A DNA stretch of 38,329 nt, taken from UHGV virus genome UHGV-1488451; one strand, written 5' to 3'. The notes under the pieces are model-generated. The model was not told the DNA's origin and ran no database searches. It saw only the letters and a list, made by a program, of their open reading frames with translations. Source of the stretch: a virus. The translations under genes were made by a program, and so were the position numbers. How positions within the stretch are numbered: position 1 is the stretch's first letter; every line of letters starts with the position of its first letter. Positions 3,011 through 29,364 of the stretch are shown piece after piece.

Positions 3011-4135
3011 ATGGCATCAATCAAACGATATGACACCGCCAAAGGAACAAAATGGCGCGTCCAATACCGCACCCCAGACGGCAAAAGCCGCACCAAAACC
3101 GGATTCCGCACCAAAAGCGAAGCCGAAAGATGGGTGGCCACACACACCACCTCCATCATCAATGGCACCTGGGTTGACCCCAACGCAGGCAACATAACCA
3201 TCCAGGCCCTCGGCACACGATGGATGGAAACCCGCACCCACCTGAAACCCTCAACAGCACGCGTCGAAGCCCTCGACTACAAAAACCACGTCCTCCCACA
3301 CTGGGGGCACCGGCGCATCAAAACTATCAAACCGTCGGAAGTGCAAGCCTGGGTGTCAGCCAGCGCCCAATCACCCTCAACCACCAGGCACCACCATGCG
3401 ATCTTGTCGAAGATTCTAGACATGGCCGTCCTCGACAACCTCATACCCGCGAACCCGGCTAAAAGCGTCACCCTGCCCCGCAAGAACAACCCAACAAAGG
3501 TGTACCTCACCATCAGCCAATTGAAGCGCCTAGCGGACGAGGCAACGGTTCGGGGTGAGCTGATCTGGCTGTTGGGAACCACTGGCCTTAGGTGGGGTGA
3601 GGCCGCTGGCTTGCAGGCGCAAGACTTGGACCCGCTGAACGGGCGCATCAGGGTGGCGAGGAACGCAGTAACGGTAGGGGGCGAGGTGGTTGTCGGAACC
3701 CCGAAAACTCATGAGCGGCGCACAGTGGCTTGCCCTGGGCATGTGATGGGGATGCTTGAAGATGCGGCACGTGGTAAGCCGCGCACCGGGTGGTTGTGGG
3801 AGTCGCCTGCGGGCGGGCCTATGCGGCTTCCGGGGAAGGGTTCTTTTTTTCATTCGGCGTTGGGGCGCGTGCGCGCCGAAGACCCGTCGTTTCCTTCGTT
3901 GACTATTCATGGTCTTAGGCATGTGGCAGCCGGACTTTTAGTTTCGGCGGGGGCGAATGTGAAGGTGGTGCAAAAGCAGCTTGGACACAAGTCTGCGGCT
4001 ATGACGTTGGATGTGTATGCGGAGTTGTTTGACGATGACTTGGATGCGGTGCGTGGGGCGTTGGATGCTTTGGTGGGTTCTTTGGGGAATGTCGTCAAAT
4101 TGTCGTCAAATCGGGGTTTTGGTGACGCGGTTTAG
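3011..4135 (+). CDS. int: Tyrosine integrase (phage integrase family)
   Basis: 374 aa with an N-terminal SAM-like/arm-binding region (KWRVQYRTPDGKSRTKTGFRTKSEAERW). The C-terminal catalytic motifs are LRWGEA...HGLRHVAAGLL...LGHKSAAMTLDVYAELF. Confidence 0.95.
   Translation: MASIKRYDTAKGTKWRVQYRTPDGKSRTKTGFRTKSEAERWVATHTTSIINGTWVDPNAGNITIQALGTRWMETRTHLKPSTARVEALDYKNHVLPHWGHRRIKTIKPSEVQAWVSASAQSPSTTRHHHAILSKILDMAVLDNLIPANPAKSVTLPRKNNPTKVYLTISQLKRLADEATVRGELIWLLGTTGLRWGEAAGLQAQDLDPLNGRIRVARNAVTVGGEVVVGTPKTHERRTVACPGHVMGMLEDAARGKPRTGWLWESPAGGPMRLPGKGSFFHSALGRVRAEDPSFPSLTIHGLRHVAAGLLVSAGANVKVVQKQLGHKSAAMTLDVYAELFDDDLDAVRGALDALVGSLGNVVKLSSNRGFGDAV
4088..4110 (+). repeat. Arm-type repeat copy 1: aatgtcgtcaaattgtcgtcaaa (two tandem TGTCGTCAAA motifs), inside the int 3' end
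   Basis: Exact 23-bp match to 4298-4320. Confidence 0.85.
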
Positions 4136-23725: not shown

Positions 23726-24940
23726 CTACGCACCCGCCGTCAGCGTCACCTTGACGAAAGCCGAAGGCAGCGGAACCATCAGACCGATACGCTCCTCAGC
23801 ACGCAAAGTAACAAGGTTCTTCTCGAAATCATCAGCGTTGGTGTTCGAGGAATCCACACGCAAACCACCCTTGCGGAGGATGGTGGAACCCTGACGGAAC
23901 GCACCCACAAGGGCGGTACCCTTCGGAATGTTGTTCGTCACAACAGTACGGTAGCCCCACACCGGCGGGTCAACCAGAATGCCACCAACACCGTACTGAC
24001 CCTGGAACGGGCCACCAGCAATGTACTGGCCGTTACCGTCCTTAGCGAGACGCAGAACCTCATAGTCAGCGGTGTTCATGATGATGCCGTCAGCAGTCAG
24101 CGGGGTTGCCTGAGCAACCTTAGAGATCGCACTGTACAGGTCATCAAACCAATTGGCTTTCTTAGCAGACGTCACCGTCTGAATGCCGGAGCGGTTCAGG
24201 ATGCCACGCACATTGCTGCCCGTGCCGTCGCCGCTGATCAGCTGCTTTTCCTCCACAACGGAAAGCTCGTAGATGAGCTGGTTGTTAATCCAGTCAGCCA
24301 CGAACCCGAAGTCCGCGATCATCTCGTCGGAAAGCTTCGTCAACGCGGCGATCTTCGACAGAGATTCAGTCACAATGTCAAGATCAGCGAACCGGACATA
24401 GGGTTTCTGCGCCCCCTCAGCCACAGACGCAGGCGCACCCTCGGCGATGCGGTTGGCCTTCTCCACCAAATATTTGATGGTGGGGAGGTCCACATTCGCG
24501 GAACCCATCAGGTCAGCGGCAACCAGCTTCTCACGACGCTGGTTAACAATGCTGCGCTGGTACATGGTGCCGAAACCATCAACCAGCGGGGTTGTCTTAG
24601 CCGGGTCGCCAGCGGCCTTGAACTCAGGTGCGGAAATCTCCAGGCGTCGGGAACCTTGCTGCTTAAGGCTTTCGCCAGCAGACTTCACGAAATGCTCACC
24701 CAGGGATTTAGCCTCAGGCTGCAGCGGGGTTTCACCGGTGTCGATGTTGCGCAGCTTCTCGAAAACCGAGTTGGCTTCCTTCACCTTTGCAAGTTCAGCG
24801 TCGAGGGCTTCGGCCTCGTGGAGGGCTTCTTTCAGTTCGGCGAGCTGCGCATCTGTCACCTCCTCGCCAAACTGCGAGTAGAGGCTTTTTGCATGGTCAA
24901 ACGCGGCGTCACGACGCTTACGCAGGGTTTTGTTACCCAT
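23726..24940 (-). CDS. Major capsid protein, HK97 fold, with N-terminal delta/scaffold-like domain
   Basis: 404 aa. The first ~100 aa are coiled-coil-like and the remainder is typical of the HK97 family (e.g. LISGDGTGSNVRGILN, RAEERIGL). Confidence 0.93.
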   Translation of the reverse strand: MGNKTLRKRRDAAFDHAKSLYSQFGEEVTDAQLAELKEALHEAEALDAELAKVKEANSVFEKLRNIDTGETPLQPEAKSLGEHFVKSAGESLKQQGSRRLEISAPEFKAAGDPAKTTPLVDGFGTMYQRSIVNQRREKLVAADLMGSANVDLPTIKYLVEKANRIAEGAPASVAEGAQKPYVRFADLDIVTESLSKIAALTKLSDEMIADFGFVADWINNQLIYELSVVEEKQLISGDGTGSNVRGILNRSGIQTVTSAKKANWFDDLYSAISKVAQATPLTADGIIMNTADYEVLRLAKDGNGQYIAGGPFQGQYGVGGILVDPPVWGYRTVVTNNIPKGTALVGAFRQGSTILRKGGLRVDSSNTNADDFEKNLVTLRAEERIGLMVPLPSAFVKVTLTAGA

Positions 24941-25629
24941 TAGTGTTTCTCCTTTTCCAAGATCATGAGGCGGGCACCCAGCTTGTTCAGGGCGCCCTGG
25001 TTATCGCCGCTCTTCTTGGCGGCATGAGAAAACCCCGGGGGTGGTGTTCCCTCGGGGCTAGTGTCGTTTCCGGTCAGCGCGTCACGCATTGATTTCAGCA
25101 TCAACGCCATTGCCTTCGACATTTCCGCGCCGGACTCGGCGGCTTTCACCGCGAGCACTTCGGTTTCCTGGTTCGCGCCGATAGGAACGACACTGACCTC
25201 GTACAGGCGCACCTTGCGAATCTCGAAAACCCAATTGTCGTTGTCTTTCATTTCCGCGCCTTCGACAACATCAAACGCGAAACTCATTTGCGACAAGCGG
25301 CGCTCTTTCAGCAGACGGTAAACCTGGCTAGCTTTCTCATTATCCAGGTCAAGCTTCGCACGGATTTTCAAACCATGATCATCCTCAACAGCCTCAACCA
25401 CCGTGCCAATATTGCTGAACGGGTCTCGGAAATCATGGCCATACAGCAAAGGCAGCTGATTACCGGATTCCTCCCACTCCTTCAACGTGTCCGCAAACGC
25501 GCCCTTACGGATAACATCACCGTAAGAATCCACATTATCGAACACACTTGCATAGGCGACAATCTCGCCCGCCTCAACCTCAACATCATCAGGCTCTTTA
25601 ACCCGAACCTTCAAATCCTTCAACTTCAT
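24940..25629 (-). CDS. Prohead (HK97-type, S78) maturation protease, internal-start product
   Basis: ATG 25629 is preceded by gagaaaggaggtgttgccctt, a strong SD. The product is MKLKDLKVRVKEPDD...AYASVFDNVDSYGDVIRKGAF...LLYGHD... Confidence 0.88.
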   Translation of the reverse strand: MKLKDLKVRVKEPDDVEVEAGEIVAYASVFDNVDSYGDVIRKGAFADTLKEWEESGNQLPLLYGHDFRDPFSNIGTVVEAVEDDHGLKIRAKLDLDNEKASQVYRLLKERRLSQMSFAFDVVEGAEMKDNDNWVFEIRKVRLYEVSVVPIGANQETEVLAVKAAESGAEMSKAMALMLKSMRDALTGNDTSPEGTPPPGFSHAAKKSGDNQGALNKLGARLMILEKEKH

Positions 25630-26088
25630 AAGGGCAACACCTCCTTTCTCACCCCCAGGCAACTCCGGGGGATTCTCATACCAAGCATCAATCCGCGCCA
25701 ACACATCATCAGACGCGCCAGCCTCAGTAGCACGCTCCACACAAACATCGCGCCCAGGGTCAACCAAATGGAACACCGCACCAGCCCCCTCAAACTTGCT
25801 GACAAGCGCAGCAGGTGGATTCTCCGACACAAACCACAACTCATCAACAATCGTCTCAGGGTCAAGCAGCCACCCCACCAAGCCCCTACGCATAGCCAAC
25901 ACCGCATCAACAACACCAGGCGGAACATCAGCCTCCGGCTTGTCGACGCCCCCCACCACCGCAGCAACCGCATCAAAATCAAAACGCGGCACCCCAGCGC
26001 TAGCATTCTCCGCAACAAACACAGACTTGCCAGCAAACGGGGGGCCAACCACAACGTTAACCGCCACCGTCATCACCTCCATCAACAC
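24940..26088 (-). CDS. Full ORF: N-terminal P-loop NTPase domain (~150 aa) fused in frame to the prohead protease
   Basis: A single 382-aa ORF with no stop. It has Walker A VVVGPPFAGKS and a Walker-B-like ELWFVSE. The start GTG 26088/ATG 26082 follows aggag and overlaps the portal 3' end. Confidence 0.6.
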   Translation of the reverse strand: MLMEVMTVAVNVVVGPPFAGKSVFVAENASAGVPRFDFDAVAAVVGGVDKPEADVPPGVVDAVLAMRRGLVGWLLDPETIVDELWFVSENPPAALVSKFEGAGAVFHLVDPGRDVCVERATEAGASDDVLARIDAWYENPPELPGGEKGGVALMKLKDLKVRVKEPDDVEVEAGEIVAYASVFDNVDSYGDVIRKGAFADTLKEWEESGNQLPLLYGHDFRDPFSNIGTVVEAVEDDHGLKIRAKLDLDNEKASQVYRLLKERRLSQMSFAFDVVEGAEMKDNDNWVFEIRKVRLYEVSVVPIGANQETEVLAVKAAESGAEMSKAMALMLKSMRDALTGNDTSPEGTPPPGFSHAAKKSGDNQGALNKLGARLMILEKEKH

Positions 26089-27310
26089 TAGGGGGCTCCT
26101 CCCCCGGGTCCACCGCAGTGTTCAACGGCACCAACAAATCATCCCCACCGTCAACCGAAGGCAGGTTGTTCATCGCACGCGCCTCATTACGTGTCATCCA
26201 CGGGCCACCAACAGCGGTACTGGTGACCTGCGCCTTTTCCTCAAACGAGGCGCGCAGCTTCTCCTCAATGTTGAACTCAAAGTAAACGTCGTCTTCAACG
26301 CCGAGCTTTTCCAGCAGGAACACGTTCAGCGTGTCCTCAATCTGTTTGATGATCGGGCCGAGGGAATCCCCGTAGAGACTCTTCCGAAACTCCCTGACGT
26401 TTGAATAGTTCGCATTATCCAGCAAACCAACCATCGTCGGATTGACCTGGAAAACACTAGCCACCGTCGCAAGGGACAACTTGGCCACATCAACGACATC
26501 CTCATCAGACGCTTTAAGATGCATCGACTTGAAAGACATGCCGTCCTCAAGAATCGGAGTGCCACCCGCACCAGAACCACGCCCCGAATACTGCGACTGC
26601 CAAGCCGCCTTAAACCGGCGACGGTCCATACCCTCCCAACGCGGAGCACCCGCAGGACGCTCAATCACACCACTAATACGCGGCCCGTTCTTCCACAACT
26701 GACCACGATACGCAGCAGATTCCAACTGCTCCTTAAGCAAGTCTTTCAGCGTGCGCACCTTCGAAGCACCACGTTTATAACTCCCCGGGGAATAGCCATG
26801 CACACGAATGATCTTCTCCGCCGGAATCTCCAACGGCTCACCAGTCTTATCATCCGTAATCACAATGGATTTCAACGTCCATTTATCTTCCCACCGCAGA
26901 CGATGAACCCACGTCGGAGAAACAGGGTAAATCTCCGGGCCGTCACCAGCGTCACTGATCACCCAAATGAACTCGTCATACAGGCACAGGTCCATGACAG
27001 ACGCATACAGCAGATCATAGAAAACCTGCCCCGCATTGGCCTTCTTCACTAGCCTCGCCAGCGGGCCGGTTCGCACACGCTCACGCCCACCATCCTCAGC
27101 ATGACGATAAACATGAACCCCAATCGACGCGATATTCCGGGCAATGAAATCCGTGACCGTCCGAAGGTGCGGTTGGGAATCCCAAAGCTGCTCCACACTG
27201 AAACCATCAATCGACGCCGCCAACGATTCAAGAATCGGCAACGCCAAACCCTCAGGCTCAGGAACAGACACCGCCGTCGGAAGAAACCCCAAACGCTGCA
27301 AAATCCCCAC
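26057..27310 (-). CDS. Portal protein (HK97 family)
   Basis: 417 aa between TerL and the protease. GTG start with the SD aggaggtga. Confidence 0.92.
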   Translation of the reverse strand: MGILQRLGFLPTAVSVPEPEGLALPILESLAASIDGFSVEQLWDSQPHLRTVTDFIARNIASIGVHVYRHAEDGGRERVRTGPLARLVKKANAGQVFYDLLYASVMDLCLYDEFIWVISDAGDGPEIYPVSPTWVHRLRWEDKWTLKSIVITDDKTGEPLEIPAEKIIRVHGYSPGSYKRGASKVRTLKDLLKEQLESAAYRGQLWKNGPRISGVIERPAGAPRWEGMDRRRFKAAWQSQYSGRGSGAGGTPILEDGMSFKSMHLKASDEDVVDVAKLSLATVASVFQVNPTMVGLLDNANYSNVREFRKSLYGDSLGPIIKQIEDTLNVFLLEKLGVEDDVYFEFNIEEKLRASFEEKAQVTSTAVGGPWMTRNEARAMNNLPSVDGGDDLLVPLNTAVDPGEEPPSVDGGDDGGG

Positions 27311-27323
27311 CAGAAATCACCTC

Positions 27324-28943
27324 CTAAACAATCAACAAATAATCATCATCACTATCATCTTCACCAGCGTAAATATCATCGAAATCAGGCTCCTCACCCC
27401 CAAAGAAATCCTCATCCGCATACGCCGAACGCCGCTCCTCAGGCTCATGCCCAAGCAACCACCACGCCACATTGCACGCCACCAAAGGCGAAACATCATT
27501 ACGACTACCCGACCTATCCCAAATGAACAGGTCACCAGCCTTCTTATCCTGCGCACCCTCAACAGCCAGATCAAGAACAGGCTGCGAACGATGCCGAAGC
27601 TCACCAGTCGCAATCGCATCAAAAAACCCAAGCACAGACGAAGACATATCCCCACCCTGCCAAGGCACCACCGTCAAACCAGCCTCCTCCAACAACGGAG
27701 CCAAACCAGCAGCCGGAGCACCCTTCACCTGCATTGCTACACGACCATCAAACCAATCGACGGCCCCAACACGAGCTGCGAACCACTCGGCAACCCATCT
27801 AAAACCGGCTCGTTGGGCGACGACTTCAACGTGCGTTCGCCCATCATCACGAACACCAGCGACCGCGACATAGGCGAACTTGCCGTCCACCGCGACATCA
27901 ACCGCCGCCGCCACAGGATTCCCCTCCGCAACACGGGAACCAGCATCAGCGCAAGCACCCCACACGTCAGCAGGAATCTTCCCCGGCTCCAGGGACTCCA
28001 CCCACACACACATTTTCTCAGTGCGGAAACCATCGGGATTCTTCGTCTCCTTCGCCTCAGCCAACAAATTCTTCAAAGTGATGCCGCCCCAACCCATCGA
28101 CGGGTTAGCCTGACGCAGCGCATCAACGTCCGTTATCTCCGCGTCCTGCGACGCTGACCACGAGAACAACGCCGTGGCCATGTCCTCAGTGTCCCCAAGG
28201 TTGATGCGCTCAACCGCTGAATCACGCAGGGATTTCAGCACAATCGAGCGGGCGTCACCAGCGTTGGAGAACCCCCACAATTGCGACTCTGGGCGCGCCG
28301 CAATGGTTGGCTCAATCGAGTTCCAGCCGTCCCACGTAAGCAGCTCACGCATCTCATCAATGAATGCCGTGTCAGCCGAAGCTGAACGCCCACCTTTACG
28401 GTCAGCAGTAGTCACCGACCATGTGGGCAAAGTGCCGAACACATCCAAGCGGCCAGGCACAGGAACCTTGCACAACTCAATCTGCTTGCTACCGTTCGTT
28501 TCCCGCATCCAAGCGCCGTTGAACTCGTTGTCCTTCGGCCTCGGGTCGTTCGGCAAGTACTCACGTAGCACCTCATTATGAGCGGCGATCTTAAACGCGT
28601 CTTTCAACGTGTCCTCAGCAACAGTAAGTTTCTGAGCTGCGGAAACAATCTCCGATGCGCCGAACACAAACAAACGCCACAAGCCGATCACAACCATCAG
28701 CGTTGTCTTGCCGTTCTGGCGGGCCACCTCAACTATGACGCGCTTAAACCGGAAGTCAGTGCCGTCGAGGTTCAGTTCCAGGCCGTGAATCAACAGCCAT
28801 TTTTGCCACGGGTACAGGCGAATACCTAGGAACTCCGCAAACTCAATGGCCTCAAACCCCTTCGACGTCTCCGGGGTTAGTGGGCGCAACGGCGGGGGAA
28901 ACAGGCGCGGCTGCTCGAAGCCCTTAACCTGCTCGACCACCAC
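27324..28943 (-). CDS. terL: Terminase large subunit
   Basis: 539 aa with an ATPase Walker A-like VARQNGKT, a Walker B-like AFIDE, and a C-terminal nuclease region. Confidence 0.93.
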   Translation of the reverse strand: MVVEQVKGFEQPRLFPPPLRPLTPETSKGFEAIEFAEFLGIRLYPWQKWLLIHGLELNLDGTDFRFKRVIVEVARQNGKTTLMVVIGLWRLFVFGASEIVSAAQKLTVAEDTLKDAFKIAAHNEVLREYLPNDPRPKDNEFNGAWMRETNGSKQIELCKVPVPGRLDVFGTLPTWSVTTADRKGGRSASADTAFIDEMRELLTWDGWNSIEPTIAARPESQLWGFSNAGDARSIVLKSLRDSAVERINLGDTEDMATALFSWSASQDAEITDVDALRQANPSMGWGGITLKNLLAEAKETKNPDGFRTEKMCVWVESLEPGKIPADVWGACADAGSRVAEGNPVAAAVDVAVDGKFAYVAVAGVRDDGRTHVEVVAQRAGFRWVAEWFAARVGAVDWFDGRVAMQVKGAPAAGLAPLLEEAGLTVVPWQGGDMSSSVLGFFDAIATGELRHRSQPVLDLAVEGAQDKKAGDLFIWDRSGSRNDVSPLVACNVAWWLLGHEPEERRSAYADEDFFGGEEPDFDDIYAGEDDSDDDYLLIV

Positions 28944-29232
28944 CGGCCGCCTTCATACGCTCCATCACCGAAACAACCGCCACAGGGCGGTCACGGTCCT
29001 CAGGAATTCCCCGCGCCTCCGGCGTGCACCCCAACGCCCCCAACGCCTTCAACAAATGAGGCCCCAAATACAACGCCTTTGTGCGGTCATACCCAGCATC
29101 AACAGGCACGAAATCAATCTGCCGAGCATACGACAGCGCCAGCTCCTGCAATGCCTTATCTGCACCGGTGACGTTCTCGCCACGCGCCTCAATTGAATCA
29201 AGTACAGCCTGTTCAAGCGGCCCAACAGTCAT
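28924..29232 (-). CDS. terS: Terminase small subunit (position-based)
   Basis: 102 aa from ATG 29232 (SD ggaaggag). It overlaps the terL start by 20 nt. The track start at 29319 lacks an SD. Confidence 0.7.
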   Translation of the reverse strand: MTVGPLEQAVLDSIEARGENVTGADKALQELALSYARQIDFVPVDAGYDRTKALYLGPHLLKALGALGCTPEARGIPEDRDRPVAVVSVMERMKAAGGGRAG

Positions 29233-29364
29233 GATTAAAGCTCCTTCCAGAAACCAGGTCTTGCGCGCGCGATACCCCCAAAAACGAGTGGGGGGAGAGG
29301 ACAGGCCCACCCGGCTCAAATGTCCTGGTCAGGTGTGCTGGTGATTTGCTACCCCCTACCGTTG

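Follow-up and report, generated by a model that had tools for sequence, protein, structure and literature searches.

A P-loop kinase-like domain fused in frame to an HK97-type prohead protease, with a putative internal start at the junction, in Corynebacterium-type siphophages

In the window (the whole stretch of DNA analysed, 38,329 nucleotides, UHGV virus genome UHGV-1488451), one late gene of a temperate, Corynebacterium-type siphophage joins an N-terminal P-loop domain to the prohead protease in a single open frame. The fusion is genuine and maintained, not an artefact, and comparison of 45 such fusions indicates that an internal Shine-Dalgarno (SD) sequence and start codon are conserved at the nucleotide level, with a predicted strength equal to that of the upstream start. 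We infer, with moderate confidence, that the gene yields two co-terminal products, and that the long one would take the kinase-like domain, possibly as an active enzyme, into the procapsid.

Organization of the fusion gene

An ORF check of the minus strand found a single 382-aa frame without an internal stop, as an earlier note on this DNA had claimed, although its start had to be moved to GTG 26067, giving a product of 375 aa. The N-termini of homologues follow the pattern M-x-x-x-V-V-x-GPP, and the window protein reads MAVNVVVGPP... from GTG 26067; this codon is therefore the likely start, and the GGAGG 8 nt upstream of it falls within the 3' end of the portal gene. The 5' end of the ORF overlaps the portal gene, whose stop TAA lies at 26057-26059, while the start of the major capsid protein (MCP) gene overlaps the protease stop (TAATG). 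The fusion gene is thus flanked by the portal and HK97-fold MCP genes, which is the position of a prohead protease (Table 1).

The C-terminal module matched PF04586 (Peptidase_S78) over aa 167-315 with an E value of 4.8e-37 and 128 bits against a cut-off of 21, and TIGR01543 (HK97 proheadase) with 150 bits against a cut-off of 59. H218 (in LLYGHD) and S269 (in QMSFAF), which we take to be the catalytic His and Ser of Peptidase_S78 proteases, are invariant in 34/34 aligned relatives. In alignments with protease-only homologues of Arthrobacter and Mycobacterium phages, the match opens at query residue 153, and these homologues begin at the equivalent of Met154. Hence, the HK97-type protease that the earlier note had placed from aa 154 onward is borne out by both profiles and by the stand-alone homologues. 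The terminal amphipathic helix of the tail reads ...LGARLMILEKEKH. The C-terminal segment of HK97 gp4 reportedly takes the protease into the assembling procapsid, and by this precedent the tail is a candidate scaffold-like or capsid-targeting segment. In the full-length AF2 model (pTM 0.48), two well-folded domains were obtained whose relative arrangement is not fixed, and no contact was predicted between the N-domain and the protease.

Table 1. Features of the fusion gene and its neighbours in the window
Feature	Position	Strand	Remarks
Portal gene	26057..27310	-	directly upstream; stop lies where the fusion gene begins
Mechanical ORF	24940..26088	-	extends 5' to GTG 26088
GGAGG Shine-Dalgarno of long product	26076..26080	-	8 nt 5' of GTG 26067; dG -13.6
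Likely long product: P-loop domain, linker, S78 protease and C-terminal tail, 375 aa	24940..26067	-	GTG 26067 to stop TAA 24940-24942
N-terminal P-loop, polynucleotide-kinase-like domain, aa 8-141	25666..26067	-	ends with conserved W136-Y137-x-N-P-P
Walker A / P-loop GPPFAGKS, aa 15-22	26023..26046	-	alignment of relatives
Disordered inter-domain linker, aa 148-167	25588..25647	-	pLDDT below 50 (full-length AF2)
Putative internal Shine-Dalgarno AAAGGAGGTG	25638..25647	-	encodes K148-G149-G150-V151; dG -18.4 kcal/mol
Internal ATG (Met154)	25627..25629	-	10 nt after GGAGG; 8 nt after AAAGGAGGTG; predicted protease-alone start
Predicted nested short form: prohead protease plus C-terminal tail, 229 aa	24940..25629	-	same frame, same stop
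Peptidase_S78 (HK97-type) prohead protease domain, aa 167-315	25144..25590	-	PF04586 and TIGR01543 matches
C-terminal tail	24946..25131	-	helix 320-338, disordered 341-361, conserved amphipathic terminal helix 363-381
HK97-fold major capsid protein gene	23726..24940	-	directly downstream

Conservation of the fusion

The same open frame occurs in more than 100 protein clusters, mostly from Corynebacterium prophages and phages. Among the best 120 clusters, 119 are 319-421 aa long and include both modules, at identities as low as 42%, and the only short entry comes from a 1-kb contig. BFK20 gp5 and phi673/phi674 gp4 are named fused homologues, and full-length tblastn matches were obtained in phages BFK20, phi673/phi674 and LGCM-V. 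Contigs 95-97% identical to the window also carry the open frame, with independent isolates, prophages and metagenomes represented. PHROG 9644 covers aa 9-320, that is, both modules. The linker varies in length among relatives, yet the frame stays open; this persistence across a disordered, length-variable linker therefore argues for selection on the fused form. The GenBank note on BFK20 gp5 records its 'experimentally confirmed presence among structural proteins', leaving the detected region of gp5 unstated. BFK20 and phi673/phi674 are related cos phages with 13-nt 3' overhangs.

The earlier note had named stops or frameshifts found consistently in homologues as the sign of an artefact; this expectation is contradicted by the homologues, as nearly all those of Corynebacterium type are fused, although separate genes occur in some distant relatives (L074 and L081). 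Two near-identical contigs, L067 (fused) and L069 (split), differ by a 1-nt indel in an A-run at the junction that toggles the form. The arrangement is not unique to the window: published phage genomes and PHROG 9644 already contain it, without comment. The same note knew of no described role for such a fusion; our full-text literature search found no description of a kinase-protease fusion.

A putative internal start at the junction

The linker houses a putative internal ribosome-binding site and start codon, AGAAAGGAGGTGTTGCCCTT-ATG, at 25627-25649 on the minus strand. What the earlier note had read as a near-perfect SD before Met154 was confirmed by its predicted duplex with the 16S 3' end, at -18.4 kcal/mol; across the ORF family, the remaining in-frame codons of start type have a median near -3.5. 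Conservation of this signal was assessed in 45 non-redundant S78 fusions by comparing a symmetric region around the junction with 734 matched control regions from the same ORFs. The in-frame ATG/GTG codons at the junction showed a median anti-SD duplex energy of -10.6 kcal/mol, whereas the controls gave -1.0, and duplexes of -8 kcal/mol or lower were found in 69% of the junction regions and 4.9% of the controls (Mann-Whitney p = 5e-22). The junction median is close to that of the N-domain's own start (-10.55).

The SD core is retained although the junction peptides differ (KGG, VGG, KEG, GRK, IRRS and KER), and the Gly codons just 5' of the junction start are GGA/GGG in 63% of cases versus a background of 37% (p = 3e-5). 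The two products that had been proposed for this locus thus gain strong comparative support from the conserved junction SD and start and from the biased Gly codons, and the in-frame start with its ribosome-binding site is of the kind found in nested genes of the lambda C/Nu3 type. A programmed frameshift in the linker of the window was set aside, as a slippery heptamer is absent there; one is present only in the L067 lineage.

The N-terminal domain has a kinase-like fold

The N-domain was modelled by AF2 with a pLDDT of 93.8, its best structural neighbours are nucleic-acid 5'-OH kinases, and hhalign matched it to T4 polynucleotide kinase (T4 Pnk) with a probability of 90.6%. It therefore resembles the T4-type polynucleotide kinase fold, and the earlier guess of a kinase or AAA_33-like domain was right at the level of the fold. 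Judged by these neighbours, the candidate substrate would be a nucleic-acid 5'-OH end or a nucleotide.

The Walker A motif pointed out earlier holds, with G15, P17, G20 and K21 invariant in 34/34 aligned relatives and S22 present in 33/34; in the hhalign alignment, K21/S22 fall on K15/S16 of the T4 Pnk P-loop. The proposed Walker-B-like stretch DELWFVSE fared differently: LWFVS is a predicted beta strand with a conserved W85, but its flanking acidic residues are variable. Conservation of acidic residues is seen instead at D37 and D39, C-terminal to strand 2; hhalign places D39 (33/34) opposite the T4 Pnk general base Asp35, and D37 (34/34) lies two residues earlier. In all, the invariant or nearly invariant positions are K21/S22, D37/D39, R67, DPG110-112, R119 and W136-Y137.

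Several catalytic residues of T4 Pnk lack an equivalent in the window domain. The essential Arg38 is aligned with Ala, Asp85, which is likewise essential and closes strand 3, is aligned with S88 at a variable position, and the lid residue Arg126, which contacts the NTP beta-phosphate, has no counterpart. R119 aligns to T4 Pnk Arg122; a second lid Arg, R125 in 31/34 relatives, is Ala in the window and its two closest clusters. Kinase activity is therefore uncertain, given the missing Arg38 and Asp85 counterparts and second lid Arg, and the window domain may bind NTP without kinase action. Mammalian Pnkp likewise has no counterpart of T4 Pnk Arg38 (PMC2831316). In the present family, the invariant R67 could replace it.

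The window protein gave no match to Pfam AAA_33 (PF13671) at E <= 1, short of the gathering threshold of 27 bits. Among the best 150 family representatives, 101 matched AAA_33 at E <= 1e-3, a few of them above 27 bits, and the family sits close to AAA_33 as a divergent branch. Searches of the N-domain against PDB, NCBIfam and PADLOC returned sub-threshold P-loop matches only, with no curated family and no defence-system link.

Partners of the N-domain family

A word-indexed protein search with the N-domain alone gave no matches, and an exhaustive HMMER profile search recovered a family of 2,878 clusters (50% identity) at E <= 1e-3. Among the best 150 of these, 61 carry S78, seven a ClpP-type protease and one a Mu-like protease, so that protease fusions make up about 46%; two representatives carry a DUF4355 scaffold, one a portal and some a capsid domain. 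The domain is hence physically linked to procapsid-entering proteins of several kinds. The portal fusion is C-terminal (P0223), and triple fusions of N-domain, S78 and capsid were also found (P0125, P0231 and L029). When fused to a protease, the N-domain is almost always N-terminal to it. In L104, an unfused copy, and in P0178 it follows the protease.

Other members lie in the packaging module. Fusions of the N-domain to an HNH nuclease directly precede terS/terL, where the packaging HNH of the HK97 gp74 type is placed, and stand-alone copies also occur upstream of terL. One fusion to a 2H phosphoesterase was found, together with fusions to collagen-repeat proteins. Unfused copies sit between the portal and protease/capsid genes in L074 (portal-MuF / N-domain / S78 / MCP), L081 (portal / N-domain / S78-MCP) and L104. 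A match to phrog_4581 raised the possibility that the N-domain is a terminase small subunit; this was set aside, as the match covers the P-loop module only and a separate terS candidate is present in the window at 28924-29319, with no HNH gene beside it among the ORFs scanned.

Proposed function and alternatives

In the explanation that we favour, translation that begins at GTG 26067 and is coupled to the portal gene's end would make the 375-aa long form, composed of the polynucleotide-kinase-like P-loop NTP-binding domain, a flexible linker of about 20 residues, the protease and the helical tail. Ribosomes entering at the internal site (AAAGGAGGTG, 8 nt, ATG 25629) would make the ordinary 229-aa protease alone, and the short form would probably be the more abundant because the internal SD is stronger and is paired with an ATG. 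The C-terminal segment common to both forms would permit entry into the assembling procapsid, as in HK97, so a fraction of the procapsid-core molecules would bring the kinase-like domain inside, where autoproteolysis could release it. Such cargo delivery is made more plausible by the recurrent fusion of the domain to unrelated procapsid-core proteins and by the structural-protein note on BFK20 gp5. The HNH-fused copies and those upstream of terL are not expected inside capsids, and encapsidation therefore cannot be the sole mode of the domain.

A first alternative, which we judge unlikely, is that two independent neighbour genes have been joined by a tolerated loss of the stop, the domain acting in the cytoplasm and the physical link having no role; the internal start would keep the protease supply normal and the linker would perhaps be cut. 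The split genes of L074 and L081, the one-base switch between L067 and L069 and the presence of the N-domain elsewhere in the packaging module all fit this account, and tightly packed late genes whose stops and starts overlap fuse easily, as in P0223 and the triple fusions. However, since the internal start would preserve the protease, frequent breakage would be predicted for a neutral fusion, while the frame remains open over a disordered linker of variable length in the more than 100 clusters, at identities as low as 42%, and fusions to proteases are nearly half of the best 150 representatives. The independent joining of the domain to scaffolds and to proteases from three unrelated families likewise argues against a roleless link.

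It is also possible, but distinctly improbable in our estimate, that the domain serves the genome ends or the packaging machinery, with fusion to the protease, portal, scaffold or HNH bringing it close to the end of the DNA, at the portal vertex or at the cos site. Its task could be 5'-end phosphorylation, end binding or protection, or nucleotide handling for the terminase. The 5'-OH kinases among its structural neighbours are consistent with this, as are the HNH fusions upstream of terS/terL, the portal and 2H phosphoesterase fusions and the cos ends of the relatives BFK20 and phi673/phi674. On the other hand, HNH and terminase cleavage usually yields 5'-phosphate ends, so that a kinase would be unneeded, the T4 Pnk acceptor-site residues Arg38 and Asp85 have no counterparts, and no HNH gene adjoins terS in the window among the ORFs scanned.

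There is little to recommend a third reading, in which the N-domain would serve the protease as a pro-domain with a regulatory or chaperone-like role, an NTP-dependent switch that would hold the protease inactive or correctly dosed until procapsid assembly. Its nearly constant place N-terminal to the protease, behind a flexible linker, and the loss of some kinase catalytic residues in the window copy would suit a binding or switch role. The conserved internal start, however, yields a predicted protease devoid of the domain, AF2 predicts no inter-domain contact, and the domain is also found by itself, following the protease or joined to HNH, portal and collagen-repeat proteins. Finally, a missed stop or frameshift from sequencing or assembly, which the homopolymer indel in the L067/L069 pair might bring to mind, has a negligible probability in view of the same frame in the complete genomes of BFK20, phi673, phi674 and LGCM-V and in the contigs nearly identical to the window.

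The delivery of the kinase-like domain into procapsids could be extended, as a tentative and rather doubtful proposal, to the whole P-loop family of about 2,900 clusters. The family might be a dedicated capsid-interior passenger of HK97-like phages, loaded by fusion to whichever procapsid-core protein a given phage employs (S78, ClpP-type or Mu-type protease, scaffold or portal), released by the protease, and acting on packaged genome ends or ejected with the DNA to modify a nucleic-acid end or host target as infection begins, for end healing or protection or for counter-defence. The conserved internal start would then set the ratio of passenger-bearing to plain protease.

Comparison with known systems

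In lambda C/Nu3, and similarly in P2 gpO, an in-frame internal start gives two co-terminal proteins whose common C-terminal part enters the procapsid. The fusion gene is similar in having a predicted in-frame internal SD and start within a head-assembly gene. In lambda, however, the protease is the longer product and the scaffold the shorter one, whereas here the predicted shorter product is the protease including its tail, and the longer one carries an additional, unrelated enzyme-like domain at its N-terminus. The C-terminal 229 aa belong to the same family as HK97 gp4, lie between portal and HK97-fold capsid genes and possess a helical tail, but an N-terminal P-loop domain is absent from HK97 gp4 and from most S78 proteases.

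Compared with the kinase domain of T4 Pnk (PDB 1LY1/1LTQ) and bacterial Pnkp kinases, the window domain shows only about 15% identity, has no phosphatase or ligase partner domain and is encoded in the head-assembly module, not among early or repair genes. Accessory domains are attached to head-interior proteins in MuF-family polymorphic toxins and in T4 internal proteins with a capsid-targeting sequence. The fusion, if encapsidated, would resemble these in carrying an enzymatic domain on a head-interior protein encoded beside the portal, and in L074 a portal-MuF fusion adjoins a stand-alone N-domain. It differs from them in that the carrier is a maturation protease (scaffold or portal in relatives) and the passenger a P-loop kinase-fold domain. 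Fusions of prohead protease and major capsid protein (NCBIfam NF045541) likewise illustrate that head-module genes fuse readily, but they join two canonical head proteins without an extra enzymatic module.

Prohead proteases are viewed as self-destroying assembly enzymes, and to our knowledge few internal or ejected proteins are known for siphophages of Actinobacteria, some Firmicutes and Chloroflexi. If an enzyme-like passenger is conserved on the protease, it would point to a general protein-loading route for the heads of such siphophages. The family is an uncharacterised one with catalytic-looking invariants and a strong genomic signature, which offers a tractable biochemical target of about 135 residues. 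The junction is a well-supported natural case of a predicted nested in-frame start kept after gene fusion, which is relevant to annotation, and the flexible linker with the protease tail could act as a natural cargo-loading handle in capsid engineering.

In existing annotation, the fusion genes are labelled only 'prohead protease', and one stand-alone copy of the N-domain is labelled 'terminase small subunit'.

Gene order and start of the fusion gene

Read from the minus strand, the window has the look of a complete temperate siphophage. Besides the genes listed in the table, it carries a replication initiator, RusA, a head-tail adaptor and a 2,171-aa tape measure.

Coordinates of selected genes in the window
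Feature	Position	Strand	Remark
Integrase	3011-4135	+	
HK97-fold major capsid gene	23726-24940	-	
P-loop/protease ORF	24940-26088	-	between portal and major capsid genes
Portal	26057-27310	-	
Large terminase	27324-28943		
Small terminase (terS)	28924-29319		candidate

As the earlier note had stated, the P-loop/protease ORF contains no internal stop. It shares its first 32 bases with the portal gene, and at its other end TAATG contains both the stop codon of the protease and the start codon of the capsid gene. GTG 26067 is the likely start of the long form, giving 375 aa, as judged from the homologue alignment (M-x-x-x-V-V-x-GPP) and from the GGAGG that precedes it by 8 nt. At its C-terminus (26057-26170) the portal carries an acidic motif twice, PSVDGGDD ... 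PSVDGGDDGGG, and the start region of the fusion gene lies within the second copy.

Fusion across homologues

The protease assignment of the same note was clearly matched at aa 167-315 (Pfam Peptidase_S78, hereafter S78, E 4.8e-37; TIGR01543, 150 bits against a cut-off of 59), and H218 and S269 were invariant in the relatives' alignment. The full-length structure model gave two well-folded domains joined by a disordered linker (aa 148-167), their relative geometry not being fixed (pTM 0.48). In the tail, disorder separates a helix (320-338) from a conserved terminal helix (363-381).

The fusion itself is genuine, and a survey of homologues revealed no consistent stop or frameshift at the junction. 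By tblastn, the full-length arrangement was found in Corynebacterium phages BFK20 (gp5), phi673/phi674 (gp4) and the LGCM-V series. In a large protein collection, more than 100 clusters of 319-421 aa, most of them from Corynebacterium, covered both modules down to 42% identity; the sole 229-aa entry among the cluster matches came from a 1-kb contig. Both modules are already included in PHROG 9644 ('head maturation protease'), which spans aa 9-320. Beyond Actinobacteria, the fusion was also present in Anaerovoracaceae, Faecousia and Anaerolineales MAGs. Because the linker stays in frame throughout the homologues despite its disorder and variable length, the alignments argue for selection on the fused protein.

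Two viral contigs, L067 (2950-4100) and L069 (1560-2720), are identical at 1149 of 1150 nt across the gene and differ in a linker A-run (A6 versus A5), which leaves a 353-aa fusion in one and, in the other, separate frames for a 146-aa protein and the protease. In the fused form the run is part of an in-frame A_AAA_AAC heptamer, matching the classical slippery pattern for -1 frameshifting, and the internal AAGGAG..ATG follows some 30 nt later. Possible explanations for the one-base difference are a natural toggle, a frameshift site or an error in sequencing.

Probable internal start at the protease module

The consensus SD and ATG noticed earlier at the protease start (Met154) proved to be conserved. 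In 45 non-redundant S78 fusions from genome and viral contigs, we located the residue aligned to the first position of the protease profile and scored how well the 18 nt before it pair with the 3' end of 16S rRNA, using 734 equal-sized windows from the same ORFs as controls. The junction median was -10.6 kcal/mol versus -1.0 in the controls (Mann-Whitney p = 5e-22), and 69% of junction windows reached -8 kcal/mol or lower versus 4.9% of controls. The GGAG(G) core was kept through differing peptides (KGG, VGG, KEG, GRK, IRRS and KER), and Gly codons in the seven upstream codons were GGA/GGG in 63% of cases versus 37% elsewhere (p = 3e-5). At the junction the signal matches in strength the start of the N-terminal domain (medians -10.6 and -10.55); for the window itself, the internal ATG start (-18.4) is stronger than the GTG start of the long form (-13.6). 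In Arthrobacter and Mycobacterium phages, homologues consisting of the protease alone have their first residue at the position of the internal start. Taken together, these sequence features make a functional internal initiation site very likely, and hence a short 229-aa protease is predicted besides the long form.

Fold and active site of the N-terminal domain

The N-terminal part of the window protein (N-domain) received no assignment in Pfam, NCBIfam or PADLOC. A high-confidence model (pLDDT 93.8, pTM 0.88) was built on a 23-sequence alignment, and the profile-sequence alignment with residues 1-160 of T4 polynucleotide kinase (T4 Pnk; sequence checked against 1LY1) gave a probability of 90.6%. 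Opposite K15/S16, the general base Asp35 and Arg122, this alignment places K21/S22, D39 and R119, respectively. T4 kinase activity depends on six essential residues, Lys15, Ser16, Asp35, Arg38, Asp85 and Arg126 (PMC2831316); no counterparts of Arg38 and Asp85 were found in the N-domain by the same alignment. The N-domain thus has a polynucleotide-kinase-like (PNK-like) fold and a partly PNK-like active site, which makes it a candidate rather than an established PNK-family enzyme. The earlier kinase-like guess holds for the fold. The proposed Walker B (DELWFVSE) falls on a predicted beta strand, although conservation does not extend to the acidic residues in it.

Conservation is instead found at D37, D39, R67, D110-P-G, R119 and W136-Y137. 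The family's second lid arginine, R125, lies in a conserved G-R-P motif and is present in 31/34 sequences; in the window (codon 125 of the ORF, 25714-25716) and in the two clusters closest to it, P0002 and P0003, the position is Ala. Catalytic activity may have been lost or altered in this clade, and is uncertain for the window's copy.

Domain family and fusion partners

In an exhaustive profile search, 2,878 clusters built at 50% identity matched the N-domain at E <= 1e-3; with a cut-off of E <= 1e-10, 1,537 remained. Among the best 150 of the 2,878, partners were Peptidase_S78 (61), ClpP-type protease (7), Mu-like protease (1), DUF4355 scaffold domain (2), HNH nuclease (5-6), collagen repeats (5), portal (1) and 2H phosphoesterase (1); three also had a capsid domain, two of them being the individually confirmed N-domain-protease-capsid triple fusions P0125 and P0231. 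The remainder were stand-alone proteins of about 135-190 aa. Fusions to ClpP-type prohead proteases (PF00574, unrelated to S78) were confirmed at L034:2950-4125 and L079:281-1465, in both of which an internal Met follows a GG-rich linker. Three architectures are unusual: in P0223 (529 aa) the N-domain is joined to the C-terminus of a portal protein, in P0178 (424 aa) it separates an S78 protease from the protease's C-terminal tail (both checked individually), and in P0121 (429 aa) the P-loop domain is tandemly duplicated.

Unfused copies lay in the corresponding position, the orders being portal-MuF, N-domain, S78, capsid (L074); portal, N-domain, S78-capsid (L081); and portal, S78, N-domain, capsid (L104). 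In L074 a portal-MuF fusion (910-2925, 672 aa) is directly upstream of the stand-alone N-domain gene, so that two head-internal accessory modules adjoin. A second recurrent site is just upstream of terS/terL, that of packaging-associated HNH proteins in cos phages. Here the N-domain is often followed, within one protein of about 250 aa, by an HNH endonuclease (L039:2989-3726, L077:2974-3717, L083, L112 and L116, with L039 and L116 checked individually). The long collagen-like Gly-X-Y repeats, found in L089 (2920-4047) and in the five cluster representatives, do not obviously fit either a procapsid-core or a packaging theme.

Proposed loading into the procapsid

Neutral read-through of neighbouring genes is a possible origin of the fusion, but it fits both the frame maintenance and the convergent fusions poorly. 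We lean towards a two-product, piggy-back loading model, which we consider fairly probable. The long form would take the N-domain into the shell as a passenger attached to a procapsid-core protein, and the conserved internal start would be a simple means of setting passenger dose. The N-domain's repeated, independent attachment to unrelated procapsid-core proteins would be expected for a passenger needed inside the shell. Encapsidation of the HK97 protease is reportedly directed by its C-terminal part (Duda, Oh and Hendrix, 2013). The BFK20 GenBank record lists gp5 as 'experimentally confirmed' among structural proteins, which is unusual for a self-digesting protease, and does not specify the part detected. 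An exclusively capsid-internal role is argued against by the copies linked to HNH or lying near the terminase, which suggest a task at DNA ends or in packaging.

Precedents exist for head genes nested in frame, for head proteins with enzyme passengers and for fusions in the head module. The novelty would lie in the combination, a maturation protease that bears a PNK-like domain yet keeps its internal start, and in the family size; full-text literature searches returned no description of the N-domain or its protease fusion. The phi673/phi674 paper names gp4 head maturation protease, with nothing further, and its mass fingerprinting identified only capsid and tail proteins. A stand-alone homologue, Mycobacterium phage Weirdo19 gp84 (L002:3004-3492), is annotated 'terminase small subunit', as is phrog_4581; the label is probably a misannotation that was propagated within the PHROG family.
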